A DNA stretch of 52,389 nucleotides from a virus (taxonomy: Duplodnaviria; Caudoviricetes), in the IMG/VR virus record IMGVR_UViG_3300037439_000020, positions 1 to 52,389 of that record, one strand, 5' to 3'. Each line of letters begins with the position of its first letter. Position 1 is the stretch's first letter. The notes under the pieces were generated by a model, which was not told the DNA's origin, did no database searches, and was given only the letters and a program-made list of their open reading frames with translations. Both the position numbers and the translations under genes were made by a program. Below are positions 22,638 to 50,405 of the stretch, piece after piece.

Positions 22638-25508
22638 TCAAGCCGCTGTCAACGCGTCTTTTGTGGGCGCAAGCGGAGCGCCATTAATGTCATAGCCACC
22701 AATAGTTCTATTGTCATAAACCGGAACGGCAAGTTCGCGCACAACAATTGGTGTCTGACCGGCAGTCGAAACAAATGCATTCGTAAATGTGGAACCAATC
22801 AAGTCAAAGTTTTCGCTATCAATAACGTCAACTTCCCAAATGCCATTTGCTTCAAGAGTACCGTCAACTTCCTGAATCAAAATCCAATCGCCGTCAACCA
22901 AACCATGACCGTCAACCGCTTGCGATCCATTTGGCGTTACCGCCGTTGTTGTCAGGCTGCAAGTAATACGAATAGCACCGCTACCGTTATCCGCAACGCC
23001 AGTAATACGGGGTGTAAAATATGTTCCTGGTGTATAGTCGCCGACATAGCCGAACTGATAACGCACTTTAACCGCTGCGCCAGGATTTGAAGCGAGCGTT
23101 AAGCGAATTTGATTCGCACTGATTAGCTCGATGGTGTCAATCGAAAGCTTGGTAGCGAAATCATCCGCACTCACTTCGAAGCCTGACACTTTAGCACCGG
23201 AACGAAGAATACGCAGTGCCGAACCGCCGTTTTGCGCAATAGCTAATGTAATAACAGCACCTGAACGCGATGCCGACATAATTGACGGACCTTCAGCACT
23301 ATTGCCAACAGCCCCAAGCTTAGCGGCGTATGAATGCGCAACACGTGCGGCAAGCCGCTTGTATATAACGTGATTCTTGTGCGAATTCAGCGGAACGGCG
23401 TTTTCCCACATTGGCTGATAGTCATTGGCGAAGCCGCCCCAAAACACATTATTGTCACCGGCGGCATTCTTGCGTTCAACCCAATCTTTATAGGCCATAC
23501 GGAACGAATGAATACTTGCCGGAGACAATGCCGACATGATGCCGCCAACAGTACTAAAGCCTTCAATTCCAAATTTGAAATCGTTATTGGGAAACTCCGC
23601 TTTAAAGAAGTCATAAAGCGTACCGAGCAAACCCCAGCCTGTATATGATCCCAATGACCCTGAATCGCTGAAATACTCGTTTTGACCAATGTTAGCTTGG
23701 CCGTGTATCCAATGAATTGACCCGATTTTTCCGGTATGCTTAGCATGAAGAACAGTAACCGCTCCACCGGTGCCGACGCCGGCATAGGTGTATGAACTGA
23801 AATATTGAATTGCTGCCGCACCGACAGCGCGATTAATCAACATAACAGGCATTTGTAGCTGACTTGAAAGATAGTTTCCGATGACACTATGACCATCTGC
23901 AAGTCCCGGTTGCGTCGTTAAATTCGGAATGCGAATTTTCGGAGCAACTCGATACAAAAATCCGCCGCTTGTATAAGCGTTGGTGAAGACCGAACCATTC
24001 AGCAAAATCGTATTGTTACCGTTGACTGTAATAATCCATTCGCCATTGGCTTCTTCCGTTCCGCCAACGAATGACGCGCGCACACGTTGACCTGTTCTAG
24101 CACCATGCGAATATTCAGTTTGAAGTTGAATTTGACCGCCAACATTAGTAGCGCCAACAATGTTAACGTCTTCTTTGCCAACCCCGTTAATCAAATAACC
24201 AACACGTTGCGACTCTGACCATAAGCCGTTCGGCGCAACTGAATTAGTTCTAACACCACCAACAAGCGGATTACTGGCACCACTACCAATGTTATCCATT
24301 GACGATTGACCCATTAACAGCACAACTTCACCAACGCCAATGCGTAACGAAGTCGTCATGACATTCGCAGAAGGCACGCCATCGATAACTTTGCGCGTCT
24401 GAAACTTATACCAGCCGTTTCGAGCCGGAAGCGATATTTCACCAGACCAAACGCCGCCGCTAGGTGAAGCTGCAACAGTAGTCCAATTGCCAACTGAAAG
24501 ATTCGTTGCCGAATCAATCGGCAGTACTTGAATCGGTGCGGCGTCGCCAATGTATGTACCTGATAGCGGTACTGTCGCGCGATTATTTGACTCGCGTTGA
24601 TATACCTTACCGTCATGCGTTGGTATAATAAAAACAGCGTCGTTAACTTCGCTGTAACCTAAACCACTAGCGGCAAAATAATTTGAAGTTAAGAAACGAG
24701 TAGCATCAATGCCGTTAAGTGTGCCGGTCCAAGTAGCGTTAGGCGGACAATTCGGCATATGATAGTCTGTCACTGCCGGCGTTCCGAAAGTACCAGGGTC
24801 AGCACCGCGCGCAGTAGCATCAATTTGCGCGTCGGTCAATGCATATGAAACAAAAAACAACTTACGAATCTGACCATGCCATTTAAAACTTCCACTGCGA
24901 TCCTGACCAACCCAAGTATTAGTTGCACTCCCTGTAAGCACACCAAACGTACTGAATTCTTCAGCGACTTTAACCGGCGCATGACCCGGCCATTTCAACC
25001 ACATTTGAACTAATGAACCTACTTTACGAAGGCAAAAGAATACCGCCATACCTAATGGCGGGTTAAATTGCGAAGATATGCCGCGCGAACTCGTATTGGC
25101 AGAATTGGCACTAGATACAGCAAACAAGTTGCCGGCGCTGTCTTTGCCGGTCGCTGTAATAATTTCATTACCAGCGTAAATATGAAAATGGCCGTTCGCT
25201 GTATAGATACTTGACGTAGGACCGACACTAAAAACAATACCGTTTGCAAGTGATTTAATCCAAAAACCAAGCGTCCAATCAGCAGCAGGAAACGTTGTGC
25301 CAAACGAGTAACGATTAGAAGTGACAGTTGAATTTAACAACGTCGCCGCGTCCGTATTTACTGCTGGCAATGCCGCTGCAACGTCTGGTTCAACAGGTGG
25401 TTCGGGTTCACCGCCGTCGTCTTCGTTGCGGCGTCGACGGTCGCGCTGATAGTCATAGTATTCTAACCATTCGCGAATAGAACGCGGACGTAAAACAAAC
25501 TTTCCCAT
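22638..25508 (-). CDS. multidomain LamG-like / SGNH (sialate O-acetylesterase-like) protein
   Basis: WTLGFWIK...GQIRKL..ALTDAQI (LamG-like); GVGEVVLLMGQSSM and WIHGQAN (SGNH blocks); two copies of an HG..G......GT.EANG.W...FTNA repeat. Confidence 0.65.
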   Translation of the reverse strand: MGKFVLRPRSIREWLEYYDYQRDRRRRNEDDGGEPEPPVEPDVAAALPAVNTDAATLLNSTVTSNRYSFGTTFPAADWTLGFWIKSLANGIVFSVGPTSSIYTANGHFHIYAGNEIITATGKDSAGNLFAVSSANSANTSSRGISSQFNPPLGMAVFFCLRKVGSLVQMWLKWPGHAPVKVAEEFSTFGVLTGSATNTWVGQDRSGSFKWHGQIRKLFFVSYALTDAQIDATARGADPGTFGTPAVTDYHMPNCPPNATWTGTLNGIDATRFLTSNYFAASGLGYSEVNDAVFIIPTHDGKVYQRESNNRATVPLSGTYIGDAAPIQVLPIDSATNLSVGNWTTVAASPSGGVWSGEISLPARNGWYKFQTRKVIDGVPSANVMTTSLRIGVGEVVLLMGQSSMDNIGSGASNPLVGGVRTNSVAPNGLWSESQRVGYLINGVGKEDVNIVGATNVGGQIQLQTEYSHGARTGQRVRASFVGGTEEANGEWIITVNGNNTILLNGSVFTNAYTSGGFLYRVAPKIRIPNLTTQPGLADGHSVIGNYLSSQLQMPVMLINRAVGAAAIQYFSSYTYAGVGTGGAVTVLHAKHTGKIGSIHWIHGQANIGQNEYFSDSGSLGSYTGWGLLGTLYDFFKAEFPNNDFKFGIEGFSTVGGIMSALSPASIHSFRMAYKDWVERKNAAGDNNVFWGGFANDYQPMWENAVPLNSHKNHVIYKRLAARVAHSYAAKLGAVGNSAEGPSIMSASRSGAVITLAIAQNGGSALRILRSGAKVSGFEVSADDFATKLSIDTIELISANQIRLTLASNPGAAVKVRYQFGYVGDYTPGTYFTPRITGVADNGSGAIRITCSLTTTAVTPNGSQAVDGHGLVDGDWILIQEVDGTLEANGIWEVDVIDSENFDLIGSTFTNAFVSTAGQTPIVVRELAVPVYDNRTIGGYDINGAPLAPTKDALTAA

Positions 25509-44369: not shown

Positions 44370-46721
44370 TCACAAATCAAAATAACGCGGATTCGCCATA
44401 ACATAAGAAACGGCACTTGTCTGGTATTTCATACCTAGCGTCGGCTTATCAATTTCCCGGAGCGCGCCAGCGTCAACCAAATTCTTGAACGTTCGCTTAA
44501 TCGCATTCGTCGCGCCGCTCTTATCTTCCTTAAAGTCCTTAAGGTTACTACATTTACGCTGAATCGTGCTAAGCGGAATCACCTTGTCACTGTGCATTGC
44601 TTGCGTACCGGTACTAATCTTTTCCCATTTATCCCAAGAGTCAAGAATATAAGTACGAATCCATTTGATAACAGTTCGTAACTGCCTATCTTCATCACTA
44701 CCTTTGATACTATTACCTATTGAACCCTCTTCGAACTTTACATGCAACCGTTCAATATCATCAATCACAATTTCAATTGCCCAACGTGCCGACGCTTCGT
44801 CAATTACCGGATCAAAAGCATGGCAGCCAATTGCGACCAATGCCGCTAACTTCATCGCCTTAATGTGGGCACGGTTCCATAACTGACGTGTTAATTCGCT
44901 TTGACTGCTGTTGATTCGTTCATCACAAAACTTATCGAAGCCTTTAAACAATTGTTCAGTTGCGACGTCGAATCTAACGTTAATAGCTTTATGTTGACTA
45001 TTCAACATAAGACTGTGAGCGCATAACGCGCCAAGACGATCAATCAAATAGAACGATGGGTTGACAATACGCTGTTCATTTAGCGGTGGACGTATACCAC
45101 TGTATTCAATTGTCAAGAAACGCGGAAGCAATCCTTCTTCAATCATGTCTTCTGACAACGCTTCGTAAAAACGCGACGGCGTTGATTCACCAATCAAACT
45201 AAACGCTGGTGATTGTATAGTGTTGGTATTCTTTTCTTTATCACTATAGATACGCGGTCGAAGTTGATCGCCTTCGCCGCTCTTATTAAACAAGTCAAGA
45301 AACAAACCTCGTAAGCTAATTAAATGTGCCGGTGCAAATGGCATAGACATGGTTTTAAGCGTCAAACCAAATTCGCCCATAATCGAAACAAAACTAGGCA
45401 TTTGACGCGATAAATACTTTATCAATGCTTGTGATGATGCAATTTCAGCTGGCCCAATAAAATCAACTGATGCGGGTACCGTCTTACCAACAGCTTTCAT
45501 TAGCTTTTCAATACCTCCTGCAATCGCTTCTTTGCCGGTACCGGTTGATGCTAACAATAAAACATACTGGTTAAGTCCGGTGCCGCTAACGTTGTATGAC
45601 CTACCCACAATACCGCACATGAGCCCGATGGCCGCAACCAAGGCGATTTCAGGTACCGGGCGCGGAGCCGCTGAATAAACGAACTGCGCGATTTCACCGA
45701 GTAAGCCAGGAGGCACCGAATATGCCTTTGACGTTTCAGCTTGAGTGGTCATCGTTTCGCTTTTTTGGCTTTTCGTTTCACCTTTTTTGCGTTTCGTTTC
45801 AGCAACAACCTCGGCAATTTGATTCTGTATGCTATCAAAATTGATCGGCATTGGCGTTCTATCGAACGCTCTATTAGTTATATGGTCTAAATACTTAACG
45901 CCTTTAATCGTTGTTTGTTTGTTACGCTCACCAAGTGCGGAGCAACGAAAGATTCGTTTAATTTGCTCTTTGTTCTTGCTGTAGAACGCCAGCATATCAA
46001 CTAAGGCAAAGTCAGCTTCAGATTGTGACGGGTAATATCCTTGCCATTTACCACCATATAACGCTTTAAACTTATCGCCGTTAGCAGCATTTAACGCACG
46101 TTGTATAATTTCGGTGTCGGTGTCAACCTCTTCAAGCGTGCCAGCATAGTACGCTGCAAGGTTAGCTGTCTCTTTGCTCATTTCGAGCCAAAGCGATTGC
46201 AAAGCGTCTTCGCAAGGTTGAATCGGTGCCGGCCGGTATACGTCACCGGTGACCGTCATATAGCGTTCGTTGCTATAGACTTCGACCGAGTCACGACGCC
46301 GGCCGCAAGGAACGTGGCCTTTAACGATAATGTGTAAACCTTTGCCGCTAGGCGACCGTTCCGCGTAGCTTGGAAACGTTTTGTATATACGTTGCTGACT
46401 TTCAACAATACGTTCTGGTTTATTATGCTTCGGCGAACCGTCAGGATTTAGCGCGTACGGGTCATCTAGGTCAATGAACGTAAACGGGTCATTATTACTA
46501 AGAACGAAACCAACACCAGAATAGCCGCCGCCATTAAGCGATGCTTCAACGGCCAAATCAAAATTCGACCAATGACGGGAATCAGTAACGCTAGCTTTAT
46601 GACCGCTGACGCTATAAGGAACCTTGGTAGGTTTGCCATTTTCATCCTGTTCGTTTTTCCAAACAATCCATTGGTCGAACTGCCGGAGTTCAACCGGTAC
46701 GTTATTATAGTTATTCGCCAT
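44370..46721 (-). CDS. primase-polymerase/helicase (NrS-1-like AEP plus DUF3987-like ATPase)
   Basis: FIDLDD, ERSPSGKGLHII, EVY..RYMTVTG, SQSEADFAL; C-terminal ASTGTGKE P-loop. Confidence 0.88.
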   Translation of the reverse strand: MANNYNNVPVELRQFDQWIVWKNEQDENGKPTKVPYSVSGHKASVTDSRHWSNFDLAVEASLNGGGYSGVGFVLSNNDPFTFIDLDDPYALNPDGSPKHNKPERIVESQQRIYKTFPSYAERSPSGKGLHIIVKGHVPCGRRRDSVEVYSNERYMTVTGDVYRPAPIQPCEDALQSLWLEMSKETANLAAYYAGTLEEVDTDTEIIQRALNAANGDKFKALYGGKWQGYYPSQSEADFALVDMLAFYSKNKEQIKRIFRCSALGERNKQTTIKGVKYLDHITNRAFDRTPMPINFDSIQNQIAEVVAETKRKKGETKSQKSETMTTQAETSKAYSVPPGLLGEIAQFVYSAAPRPVPEIALVAAIGLMCGIVGRSYNVSGTGLNQYVLLLASTGTGKEAIAGGIEKLMKAVGKTVPASVDFIGPAEIASSQALIKYLSRQMPSFVSIMGEFGLTLKTMSMPFAPAHLISLRGLFLDLFNKSGEGDQLRPRIYSDKEKNTNTIQSPAFSLIGESTPSRFYEALSEDMIEEGLLPRFLTIEYSGIRPPLNEQRIVNPSFYLIDRLGALCAHSLMLNSQHKAINVRFDVATEQLFKGFDKFCDERINSSQSELTRQLWNRAHIKAMKLAALVAIGCHAFDPVIDEASARWAIEIVIDDIERLHVKFEEGSIGNSIKGSDEDRQLRTVIKWIRTYILDSWDKWEKISTGTQAMHSDKVIPLSTIQRKCSNLKDFKEDKSGATNAIKRTFKNLVDAGALREIDKPTLGMKYQTSAVSYVMANPRYFDL

Positions 46722-47008: not shown

Positions 47009-47085
47009 CTGTAATCTTTCCCTTGACACCGAGAGACGATAGGGGCAGTGTGTCGCGCCCCGTACCCACAATAACAGGCGGACCA

Positions 47086-48132
47086 ATGAACCTTATTCAG
47101 TACCAGACCGAGTGCCAGAGCACCAAAAGCAATGAATTCTTCGGTGACCGCGTCACAAAGCTGTTCTTTAAGAATGCTATTCTTGAAGCGGTCGAAGCGC
47201 TGACCCGACTGGACGCAATTAAGAAGTCAATGTTCTACGGCAAAGCTTCAACGCGTTACCCGGTCAACGGCGGCTTTGAAGGCGAAGAAGATGGCAAGGG
47301 TAACGCTGTTGAAACATGCGCTTCGGTCAACGTGATTCTTGAAGATAGCGAACAAGGCGAACTAGCCGGTAACAAAGGCGTTGACGTTATTCACGGCATT
47401 CTAGGCAAAGCGACCGAAGCAAGCGAGCTGCTTGAAGCGCTCTATACAGCTGCATACAACGGTCAGCCTTTGGACCGTGTCAACCTTATCGAAGAAGTCG
47501 GCGACGGCTTTTGGTATGACGGCATTACGCTTGAAGCCGTTGGCAGCAACTTTCATGACGCCGCCGCTCGCAACAATGCCAAGCTGAAGAAGCGCTTCCC
47601 GAATAAGTTCACAACCGAAAACGCGGTTACCCGCGACCTGACCGGCGAACGAGAAATGCTCGAAATCCCGGCGTTCTTGCGTAAGGAAGATGAACCGATT
47701 GCCGAATCAGACGTGGAAATGCTGAAGCGCTTAGGGACTGACGGCAAATTGTGGGCACATGAATTAGAAAATCGTCTTCAGCGATTCGATGCAATTTTAT
47801 CGACCGATAGAGTCGATTACTTGCACGCTTGGTTCGCCAATGCCATTGAAGCCGGCGCAATGCGCGAAACGTCGAAGCTGGCGAAGAAGCTTAGCGACTT
47901 GGACAACTGCGTTGCAATTCAAAGCGGACCCGGCACCGGCGACACTGACCATTACATGCGCGGGATGGCAAACGGTCTGATTCTGGCGCAAAGCATCATG
48001 AAGGGTACAGAATGCAAGTATCTTGACGCCAATTGTGTGAAAGACGCCAATAAGGTAGCGTCAACCGACACCCCGCTTGAAGTCGGCGACGAAGCTGAAT
48101 CCGAACGAATCCGCGAAGAGAATGCCGGTTAA
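47086..48132 (+). CDS. MazG-like nucleotide pyrophosphohydrolase with C-terminal extension
   Basis: HGILGKATEASELLE...NLIEEVGDGFWY...NNAKLKKRFP acidic-helix motif; ATG 47086. Confidence 0.8.
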   Translation: MNLIQYQTECQSTKSNEFFGDRVTKLFFKNAILEAVEALTRLDAIKKSMFYGKASTRYPVNGGFEGEEDGKGNAVETCASVNVILEDSEQGELAGNKGVDVIHGILGKATEASELLEALYTAAYNGQPLDRVNLIEEVGDGFWYDGITLEAVGSNFHDAAARNNAKLKKRFPNKFTTENAVTRDLTGEREMLEIPAFLRKEDEPIAESDVEMLKRLGTDGKLWAHELENRLQRFDAILSTDRVDYLHAWFANAIEAGAMRETSKLAKKLSDLDNCVAIQSGPGTGDTDHYMRGMANGLILAQSIMKGTECKYLDANCVKDANKVASTDTPLEVGDEAESERIREENAG

Positions 48133-48217: not shown

Positions 48218-48247
48218 TTGACAAGCATGGCGGCGTTAGCATAAGCT
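48218..48247 (+). promoter_or_regulatory. candidate sigma70 promoter overlapping a terminator-like hairpin
   Basis: TTGACA-N18-TAAGCT followed by AGCGCC; overlaps GGCGGCGTTAGC/GCTAGCGCCGTC-TTTT. Confidence 0.5.
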
Positions 48248-48278
48248 AGCGCCGTCTTTTAATCGAACAGGAGTCAAT

Positions 48279-48845
48279 ATGCCGAAGCATGAAAGCGCCG
48301 CATTACCAATGATGCCGGCGGCAGAATATGTAAACGACAAAGAGCAAGCCGAAATTGCCCGTATTCGTGGCTTGCTGGAATGGGGCCAAAAGCTGAATGA
48401 CACCGACAAGGAAAGCTATTTCTATTTCTTGTTGCGTAATCAGCAACGCGTTAAAGCGGTTCTTGACCGAGTTAAAGCGGATGAAATGGCGTTTCGCGTT
48501 CTAGCAATTAATGTCGGCTTTGATACAAGCCGAACTGGAACGCAACGGGTTGAATTGGAAGGCGGCTATCAGGCTAAAGGCGTTATCAAATATCATTACG
48601 GCTTTGTCAAGACGCCCGAAGGCAAACTTGACAAGCGCGCCATTGACGCGGCTTTGACCGCCATCGAAGAACGTTCACCGGCCGGCGCGTATATCGCCGA
48701 ACATTTGGTGAAATGGACGCCCGACCTTAGCTTGACTGAATACAAGAAATTGCCAGCCGAAGACAAAGCAATTATTGATGAAGTCATTATAACGACGGAC
48801 GCCGCGCCAGTTCTCGAAATCGAAGCGCCAAAAGGCAGCAACTAA
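48279..48845 (+). CDS. hypothetical protein
   Basis: GAACAGGAG RBS, 188 aa. Confidence 0.75.
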   Translation: MPKHESAALPMMPAAEYVNDKEQAEIARIRGLLEWGQKLNDTDKESYFYFLLRNQQRVKAVLDRVKADEMAFRVLAINVGFDTSRTGTQRVELEGGYQAKGVIKYHYGFVKTPEGKLDKRAIDAALTAIEERSPAGAYIAEHLVKWTPDLSLTEYKKLPAEDKAIIDEVIITTDAAPVLEIEAPKGSN

Positions 48846-49059: not shown

Positions 49060-49731
49060 ATGAAACAGGAAATTTATAAGTCGTCAACGCTAGGCGAAAT
49101 CCCGCTATCATTTACCGGCCGGCATTTGCTGCAAAATTTGCGCGAAGTGATTACAAACGGCATAGCGGCTTCAGCCAATGGCCAACCGATCAAATGGGAC
49201 GATATTTCAATTGCTCGCGGCAAGCTGGCGCAGTATATAAGCAAGCTTGAACAGCGTTCTGAACGTCCGCGCGCTTACGACTCCCACAATGAAGACGAAC
49301 CGCGCGTTCATGTTCATCACGTTCAGTCATTCGAAGAAGTTTTAAAAATCATGGCAGATTACGAAGCCGGCAACATGCCGCTTGAATCGAACGGCCAGGA
49401 AATAAAAAGCACACTTGAAGAAACTAACCCAAAGACGCAAGTACATGAAGCGCCGAACGGTTCGACGCTGGTATTGCCGGAAATCCCGGAAAACTACGTG
49501 TTGCGTATGGTTGGCGGCATGCTAGTAATTCAGCCGCTATCGGTCGAAGAATTGCAAGCCAAAGCCGACTGCGATTTTAATAAGCGCAACAACGAAAAGT
49601 TTTATCACTTGTTAAACGAATACCGTGACGCTTTGATGGCGGTACAAATACCCGGCGCAAGGCGTGATTGGCAAGAACACGTTGACAAAGCCCGTATGGC
49701 AATCATTCAGGCTTACGAAAAACCGTTATGA
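49060..49731 (+). CDS. hypothetical protein
   Basis: 223 aa, ATGA-coupled to the ATPase. Confidence 0.75.
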   Translation: MKQEIYKSSTLGEIPLSFTGRHLLQNLREVITNGIAASANGQPIKWDDISIARGKLAQYISKLEQRSERPRAYDSHNEDEPRVHVHHVQSFEEVLKIMADYEAGNMPLESNGQEIKSTLEETNPKTQVHEAPNGSTLVLPEIPENYVLRMVGGMLVIQPLSVEELQAKADCDFNKRNNEKFYHLLNEYRDALMAVQIPGARRDWQEHVDKARMAIIQAYEKPL

Positions 49732-50405
49732 ATATCGGTCAACTTAAGCCGGCGTCGCAACTAGCGCAACGGTTTGGCGTCAAGTCGGTATGCTTCGGCG
49801 GACCCGGCACCGGTAAAACACCGCTGACAAACACCGCGCCGCGTCCTGTATTATGCGTGACCGAGCCGGGTATGTTAACCATGCGAAATAGTAATATTCC
49901 GACTTGGGAAGCATACACGCCGGATCGGGTTGACGAATTCTTTGAATGGCTTCAACGGTCGAACGAAACCCGAAACTTTGACACCGTTTGCATTGACTCG
50001 GTATCGCAAATGGCGGAACTGTTTCTGTCGCGGGAATTGGCGCGTTGGAAGGACGGGCGTAAAGCCTATGGTGAAATGGCGCGGCATGTAATGGAGCTAT
50101 TGAACGGCTTGTATTACATGCCGCAAAAACATACTTACTTGATTGCCAAAGAAGGCATGATTGAACTTGGAGGCGTGACAAAGCGAAAACCATATTTCCC
50201 CGGTCAGGATTTGAACATTAAAGTTCCGCATATGTACGACGAAGTTTGGCATATCGGGTTAGCGAACATACCCGGTCAGCTGAAGCCAGTTGTTGCAATC
50301 CGAACTGTTGAAACGTTTGATACATTTGCGCGGGATAGAAGCGGGCGTTTGAATGAATACGAATACCCGAATCTTGCCGCGCTCTTTGAAAAGGCAATGT
50401 CGTAA
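49728..50405 (+). CDS. AAA ATPase, Sak4-like recombinase
   Basis: GGPGTGKT Walker A, VCIDS Walker B; adjacent to the SSB and exonuclease genes. Confidence 0.8.
   Translation: MNIGQLKPASQLAQRFGVKSVCFGGPGTGKTPLTNTAPRPVLCVTEPGMLTMRNSNIPTWEAYTPDRVDEFFEWLQRSNETRNFDTVCIDSVSQMAELFLSRELARWKDGRKAYGEMARHVMELLNGLYYMPQKHTYLIAKEGMIELGGVTKRKPYFPGQDLNIKVPHMYDEVWHIGLANIPGQLKPVVAIRTVETFDTFARDRSGRLNEYEYPNLAALFEKAMS

Follow-up and report, generated by a model that had tools for sequence, protein, structure and literature searches.

Does a short peptide in a phage nucleotide hydrolase copy the C-terminal tail of the bacterial division protein FtsZ, or does it only happen to look like it? The question is raised by a mazG-like gene in the window analysed here, which is the whole of a virus record in IMG/VR (IMGVR_UViG_3300037439_000020; 52,389 bp, CheckV completeness 100%). 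Its 348-residue product, P0001, reads L-E-I-P-A-F-L-R-K at residues 192-200, encoded by positions 47659-47685 of the plus strand (CTCGAAATCCCGGCGTTCTTGCGTAAG; context EREMLEIPAFLRKEDEP), and the translation confirms the peptide that an earlier inspection of the DNA, hereafter the original prediction, had placed in this MazG-like protein. E. coli FtsZ, whose tail is printed as DYLDIPAFLRKQAD383 (PMC4117426), carries LDIPAFLRK, and thus 8 of the 9 residues coincide, the ninth being the conservative exchange of D for E that had been claimed. The explanation that we favour, while rating it just short of an even call, is that selection has made the peptide a mimic of the FtsZ tail, displayed by an early, oligomeric enzyme and competing for tail partners such as FtsA and ZipA. 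Three observations carry it: the sequence match, the position of the peptide outside the minimal fold of the enzyme, and the non-random recurrence of the motif on other carriers in the phage group.

The stretch IPAFLRK of P0001 is identical to residues 374-380 of E. coli FtsZ, and the pattern used as a test of the core, an acidic residue followed by I-P-x-F-L-[RK], is present as E193-I-P-A-F-L-R-K200, as in E. coli bar the exchange of D for E. The likeness thus comprises the identical core, the preceding acidic residue and the hydrophobic positions, with acidic residues following in P0001. I194 and L198 are the equivalents of FtsZ I374 and L378, which are critical for ZipA, FtsA and MinC (PMC4117426). 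The original prediction had named FtsA, ZipA, MinC, SlmA and ClpX as partners of the tail, in agreement with the literature, where the tail is described as a common address for ZipA, FtsA, MinC, ZapD, ClpX and SlmA (PMC4117426). A protease adaptor or another hub, for instance ClpX, might also be what reads the peptide, which would then be a degron that times removal of the protein, or a competitor that spares or occupies ClpXP. ClpX is indeed one of the reported interactors of the FtsZ tail (PMC4117426), and the FtsZ C-terminus holds one ClpXP recognition site (PMC3983244). However, the motif of P0001 is internal and not C-terminal, the matching core residues are those that ZipA, FtsA and MinC depend on, and nothing specific to P0001 points to this reading, which we consider very improbable.

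The carrier of the peptide is probably an active phage MazG-like nucleoside triphosphate (NTP) pyrophosphohydrolase, judging by its sequence. Residues 5-199 match phrog_229 (E 7.5e-40), which places the peptide directly after the MazG domain, as predicted; a second family, phrog_37613, matches at E 9.6e-18, and the Pfam MazG profile (PF03819) scores 18.3 bits, below its cut-off of 22. In an alignment of 66 homologous sequences E111, E114, E137 and D140 are invariant, and because this acidic quartet is kept we take P0001 to be a real enzyme and not the product of a decayed gene. The four acidic metal ligands of Mycobacterium tuberculosis MazG are Glu119, Glu122, Glu138 and Asp141 (PMC10014863), equated here with the residues of P0001 by their spacing pattern and not by structural superposition. 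MazG enzymes of solved structure form dimers or tetramers (PMC10014863), and the statement that enzymes of this type are oligomeric therefore holds for the known structures. The AlphaFold2 (AF2) model of P0001 is all-helical, with a mean predicted local distance difference test (pLDDT) value of 80.7 and values above 90 over most of residues 11-50 and 101-190. When the whole model was compared to the PDB with Foldseek, nothing was returned at E <= 0.001, the rows obtained being weak ones (mouse dCTPase, E. coli MazG and DR2231, all at E > 1).

The closest described relatives are MazG-like pyrophosphatases of phrog_229 from Pseudomonas phage 73-like, Stenotrophomonas DLP1/DLP2 and Xanthomonas siphoviruses, which share the homologous catalytic domain (47-53% identity over residues 4-193). 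Their mazG gene adjoins a primase gene, as in the window, but the proteins among the matches listed are without the extension of about 155 residues and the FtsZ-like peptide of P0001. The tblastn search with P0001 matched 375 phage records, and in none of them is 80% of the query covered; among the 40 matches listed the aligned region ends at residue 193.

This boundary is also where the peptide begins. L192 and E193 are nearly invariant at the end of the MazG-like domain in the 66 homologs; on this alignment L-E is the conserved domain end, and only the seven residues IPAFLRK are new and lineage-specific. Two of the nine matching residues are accordingly supplied by the domain itself, a point in favour of the view that the peptide arose by chance, to which we return below. 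Among the 125 homologs with a recognisable domain end, 22 terminate no more than five residues from the conserved L-E. In the AF2 model a helix at residues 185-193 is followed by a three-residue helical turn (196-198) and by coil (199-208), while the block pLDDT drops from 85 to 65; because a turn and then coil of falling pLDDT follow the helix, the model places the peptide outside the catalytic core, and it is not buried there. Burial in the fold had been named as one way in which the original prediction might fail, and the model and the homologs that stop at this point both speak for an exposed site. The acidic coil modelled after the motif is what is expected of an exposed linear motif, and tells against a chance origin.

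We assembled a set of 184 other homologs (45,305 residues) from 47 word-index matches and the best 150 of 6,166 HMMER matches, the two lists overlapping. One of its members, P0005, ends in EGEALDIPAFLRC (ALDIPAFLRC); the tail concerned and the linker of P0001 are not homologous. When the set was shuffled, IPAFLR was found 0.002 times on average, and at least one occurrence was reached in 4 of 2000 shuffles, which makes another IPAFLR within this family hard to attribute to chance.

A third carrier was found in a syntenic relative. In a scan of viral DNA for patterns encoding an RR variant of the peptide, two of the contigs also encode MazG relatives (L264 and L270, the same records as L228 and L229). 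In L264 (genome G020, 42,213 bp) the gene order is that of the window: primase and a 65-residue regulator, both on the minus strand, then MazG, DUF7173, a 103-residue protein, Sak4 and SSB, with identities to the window of 43% for MazG (200 residues in L264), 43% for DUF7173 and 67% for Sak4. The 103-residue protein (L264:4694-5005, plus strand; present also in L270, L228 and L229) is a cysteine-rich orphan encoded two genes downstream of mazG, and its C-terminus is a full FtsZ-like tail, EYLEIPAFLRRNDD; no homolog and no Pfam family was found for it. It was also the only place in which the loose motif [DE][ILV]Px[FY][LIM][RK] was seen among 161 loci around MazG relatives (590,528 residues of open frames). 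Unlike P0001, both P0005 and the 103-residue protein carry the peptide at their C-termini. Three carriers of the motif are thus present in the phage group, namely a MazG linker, a MazG C-terminus and a neighbouring 103-residue protein, and its recurrence on carrier proteins other than P0001 is non-random.

Several findings weigh against a selected mimic. A first group concerns presentation: in FtsZ, a tubulin homolog, a long disordered linker leads up to the peptide, whereas in P0001, an NTP pyrophosphohydrolase, it is internal (residues 192-200 of 348) and abuts a folded helix, so that terminal display behind a flexible disordered linker is not what is seen. The residues D-Y that precede the peptide in E. 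coli correspond to E-M in P0001, inside the helix of the folded domain. The tail used for comparison, that of E. coli FtsZ, may not be the host's; the sole hint as to the host is that relatives of the MazG domain in bacterial genomes come mostly from gammaproteobacterial metagenome-assembled genomes. A predicted complex of full-length P0001 with residues 185-328 of E. coli ZipA, as a stand-in for the ZipA of the host, scored 0.02 against a mark of 0.32 (alignment A2, controls absent), which counts neither for nor against binding.

A second group concerns conservation. The nearest homologs are P0002 (57% identity to P0001) and P0003 (54%), and the alignment shows the motif at the homologous position in none of the six closest extended homologs (P0002-P0007); the stretch that joins the domain end to the following conserved block, MLxRLGTD, has a different length and sequence in each of them. 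Absence from close homologs, which the original prediction had itself listed as telling against it, is therefore what this site shows. IPAFLR occurs in only 1 of the 184 other homologs, P0005, at a different site. P0005 comes from a contig of 2,475 bp, one that lies outside the 53 metagenome loci returned, and its C-terminus may be a contig edge. A looser core pattern was found in 0 of 53 metagenome relatives and in 0 of 108 MazG-like open reading frames (ORFs) from genome and viral loci. A real [DE]IPxFLR is present in 1 of 26 near-complete related phage records, and the motif is thus not a core function of the group; a match to this pattern in G025 was rejected, as its frame is antisense to a 395-residue ORF, and DLPQYIK in P0157 was not counted as a tail mimic, as it lies within the variable insert of the MazG domain. 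With a 12.4-kb query, megablast against the phage collection returned 4 records, each with about 1% query cover, and no near-identical phage in which conservation of the site could be assessed.

The lack of conservation feeds the main rival, according to which it is by accident that a hypervariable linker reads IPAFLRK behind the conserved L-E, and the peptide has neither partner nor function. In the proteome of this phage (16,402 residues) IPAFLR is expected 8.8e-4 times by chance, but over 250,000 windows of this size about 219 chance copies of this hexamer are expected, and a reader in search of this motif will meet chance cases; set against the whole scan, one occurrence by itself carries no significance. 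The linker, which differs in every close homolog and keeps the motif in none, fits such an origin, while the second IPAFLR in the family and the full tail two genes from mazG in the syntenic relative do not. The peptide is not conserved among the orthologs of P0001, unlike the FtsZ tail; the motif is sporadic, with three carriers in one phage group and conservation at one orthologous site never seen. Short linear motifs in disordered segments are expected to behave in this way, as are accessory functions directed against the host, and the pattern also keeps chance alive for this copy. On balance we hold a chance origin to be possible, if rather doubtful.

The same peptide is found on other viral proteins. 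A scan of viral DNA for patterns encoding the K variant returned 101 loci, 24 of which encode [DE]IPAFLRK, 14 of these in frames that have a start and run to 100 codons or more. The other 10 lie in short or cut frames, and several of the remainder are single cases, which again suits a chance origin. The other 77 loci (DIPAF[LF]SK-type, with one DIPAFFRK) were set aside as an artefact, nearly all being short start-less frames and many of them the same frame of 27 codons. This start-less frame (…CIFRYFDIPAFLSKA) recurs in about 50 of loci L001-L101 (for example L002, L004 and L007), on viral and prophage contigs, and evidently stems from a conserved DNA element or gene that is read out of frame. 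The 14 long frames include a family of lysine-rich, probably disordered proteins from nine loci (L003, L010, L015, L018, L036, L042, L059, L066 and L068), with frames of about 350-510 codons, in which KKSDIPAFLRKARGDKP is conserved about 100 residues from the C-terminus. A further frame, of 202 codons on the minus strand of L071, ends in ...PLDIPAFLRKQAD; its last 12 residues coincide with those that close the tail of E. coli FtsZ (PMC4117426), the tubulin G-box is absent, and the frame may be a captured 3' end of ftsZ.

The RR-variant scan gave 43 loci, 39 of them encoding [LF][DE]IPAFLRR, and in 32 the peptide lies in a frame of at least 100 codons with a start, usually preceded by acidic residues (DDGLDIPAFLRR). 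Many of these peptides lie close to an end of the frame, either 3-21 residues before the C-terminus or no more than about 36 residues from the N-terminal end. When 10 of the 32 carriers were compared to PHROG, five were ParB-like/DNA-methyltransferase proteins, one a helicase, one a DNA methyltransferase and one a member of a family of unknown function, and two had no match. Since the carrier frames of both pattern scans are without the tubulin G-box, they are not fragments of FtsZ. Carriers of the DDGLDIPAFLRR type were seen at L267:4209-5588, L268:11172-12551 (minus strand), L269:2966-4879 (minus strand), L274:4008-5612 and L287:2301-4640, and also in L280 and L277; they include ParB-like/DNA-methyltransferase fusions, one further DNA methyltransferase and an SNF2-type helicase. 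Their peptides are mostly 8-17 residues from the C-terminus (about 105-109 in a longer form), and near the N-terminus in the helicase.

The nature of these carriers bears on a reading in which the motif is an address for the enzyme itself. It would tether P0001, or its C-terminal domain, either to FtsA or ZipA, located at the membrane or the Z-ring, or to SlmA on the nucleoid; the original prediction had likewise offered a tether to the divisome beside a block of division. We think such a tether unlikely, and the purpose it might serve, namely to enrich an enzyme of DNA-precursor metabolism at the sites of entry or replication of phage DNA, is to our minds equally improbable. The viral carriers that were scanned are mostly enzymes of DNA metabolism, the mazG-like gene sits in a replication/recombination module, and DNA-bound SlmA does bind the tail peptide (PMC4117426). 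Nevertheless, nothing speaks for a benefit of such placement to a soluble nucleotide hydrolase, the carrier in L264 is a small non-enzymatic protein that fits a decoy better than a tether, and the carriers may all plausibly be oligomers, in which case a model of avidity and decoy fits equally well.

For a selected mimic that competes for the partners of the tail, a mechanism can be proposed. The variable linker that follows the catalytic domain would, in this lineage, have acquired a short linear motif copying the docking peptide of the host FtsZ. Because MazG-type enzymes are dimers or tetramers, each particle would carry two to four copies of the peptide, and oligomeric display could turn a weak ligand, with an affinity in the tens of micromolar, into a multivalent one. 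By the title of a 2015 study by Du et al., oligomerisation reportedly makes of the FtsZ tail a high-avidity ligand. An abundant oligomeric early enzyme might then compete with FtsZ filaments for the anchors and regulators that read the tail (FtsA, in gammaproteobacteria ZipA, and possibly MinC, SlmA, ZapD or ClpX), so that anchoring of the Z-ring would be perturbed and division delayed during infection. We infer oligomeric display, binding and an effect on division for the P0001 peptide from published results: the tail is a common address for its partners; the free tail peptide binds weakly, with Kd values of 20 µM for ZipA, 50 µM for FtsA and 81 µM for SlmA (PMC4117426); FtsZ fragments 354-383 are inhibitory in vivo (PMC10769210); and solved MazG enzymes are oligomeric. 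It is for these reasons that a multivalent decoy is proposed.

More broadly, phages may repeatedly have grafted the FtsZ docking tail onto oligomeric early proteins, as multivalent decoys or adaptors for the whole set of FtsZ-tail interactors, with the motif hopping between carriers within one group. This would be a general strategy of host control by linear-motif mimicry, not known to have been described in phages; we put this forward tentatively, as somewhat less probable than its negation. With the same reserve, the grafted carriers would comprise this MazG enzyme, the ParB-like/DNA-methyltransferase fusions, helicases and small orphan proteins. For P0001 the outcome would presumably be that of lambda Kil, DicB and KilR, namely interference with the Z-ring by an early phage-encoded protein, and the action of Kil depends on ZipA (PMC3961180). 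These three, however, are small dedicated proteins and, in the available parts of the sources, are not described as copies of the FtsZ tail; what sets P0001 apart, by these descriptions, is a docking peptide grafted on an enzyme. No description of a phage protein that copies the FtsZ tail was found in the literature searched, with subscription journals and supplements lying outside the search.

Beyond the peptide and its acidic linker, which lie in a region of variable length and sequence among homologs, P0001 continues into a helical extension of modular make-up. The modules MLxRLGTDxxLWAxE...AWFANAIEAG and HYMRGMANGLILAQ are shared with other phage proteins, where their positions differ. One unit, GTDxxxWAxEF ... 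AWFANAIExGR, about 60 residues long, was found in at least 11 other phage proteins (L140-L154; open frames of 63-625 codons), and the HYMRGMANGLILAQ unit, C-terminal in P0001, is N-terminal in the MazG homologs P0012 and P0013. Neither unit corresponds to a Pfam family. For the extension as a whole (about residues 196-348), Pfam gave no family (best match LTM, E 0.091) and neither did PHROG, no short stand-alone homologs were found, and the ESM Atlas offered no usable lead.

Features of the locus are collected in Table 1. The phage is of siphovirus type, going by its annotated structural genes (major head protein, portal, terminase, tape measure and tail proteins); its genome has a G+C content of 47% and no tRNA genes. 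Its annotated replication and recombination genes are those for a helicase, a DNA polymerase with its processivity factor, a primase, a Sak4-like protein, SSB and a Cas4-type exonuclease, and the mazG-like gene is placed among them. There was no match to FtsZ_C anywhere in the phage record, and thus no FtsZ or tubulin of its own was seen. We adopted the ATG at 47086 as the start of the mazG-like gene, the ORF list opening at an upstream TTG at 47023. Because a terminator-like hairpin lies downstream, the gene may be transcribed on its own; no sigma-70-like promoter was found upstream of it. The primase is 52-53% identical at the amino acid level to those of Pseudomonas phage 73-like, Stenotrophomonas DLP1 and Xanthomonas siphoviruses. 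The ORF of 223 residues between the DUF7173 and Sak4 genes is dissimilar to the 103-residue protein that occupies the same slot in L264. Elsewhere in the window, amid the head and portal genes, an ORF of 956 residues (22638-25508, minus strand) has no PHROG match at E <= 1e-8.

Table 1. Features at and around the mazG-like gene (positions in the window; aa, amino acids)
Feature	Position	Strand	Basis
DNA primase/helicase gene, divergently oriented	44370..46721	-	phrog_3022, 1.4e-234
mazG-like gene, 348-aa product (P0001) with C-terminal extension	47086..48132	+	phrog_229, 7.5e-40
MazG-like all-alpha NTP pyrophosphohydrolase domain (predicted), aa 5-193	47098..47664	+	profile, alignment, tblastn, AF2 helices
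LEIPAFLRK, FtsZ C-terminal-peptide-like motif, aa 192-200	47659..47685	+	translation, alignment
Acidic linker EDEPIAESD, aa 201-209	47686..47712	+	homolog alignment; AF2 block 201-210, pLDDT 65, mostly coil
Helical C-terminal extension, modular, aa 210-348	47713..48129	+	alignment, AF2, profile scans
Terminator-like hairpin (12 pairs, then TTTTAAT) between mazG-like and DUF7173 genes	48229..48256	+	consensus match only
DUF7173 / phrog_2480 gene	48279..48845	+	syntenic with L264 4175-4648, 43% identity
223-aa ORF without family match, variable slot between DUF7173 and Sak4	49060..49731	+	family scan, synteny
Sak4-like single-stranded-DNA-annealing protein	49728..50405	+	67% identical to L264 5014-5694; synteny anchor

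For annotation, the locus advises caution, as genes called mazG in this phage group may have extra, unrelated functions in their C-terminal extensions. If the favoured explanation is true, it would point to a different phage route to interference with division, one that does without a dedicated inhibitor of FtsZ polymerisation: an address label of about seven residues, shared by all the partners of FtsZ, would have been copied onto an enzyme that is already oligomeric. Such proteins would be natural ligands that compete for the pocket in which FtsA and ZipA receive the FtsZ tail, a site discussed as an antibacterial target. The sporadic appearance of these motifs on unrelated phage proteins would also be explained. 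Mimicry of short linear motifs, well known in eukaryotic viruses, would then be at work in phages too.

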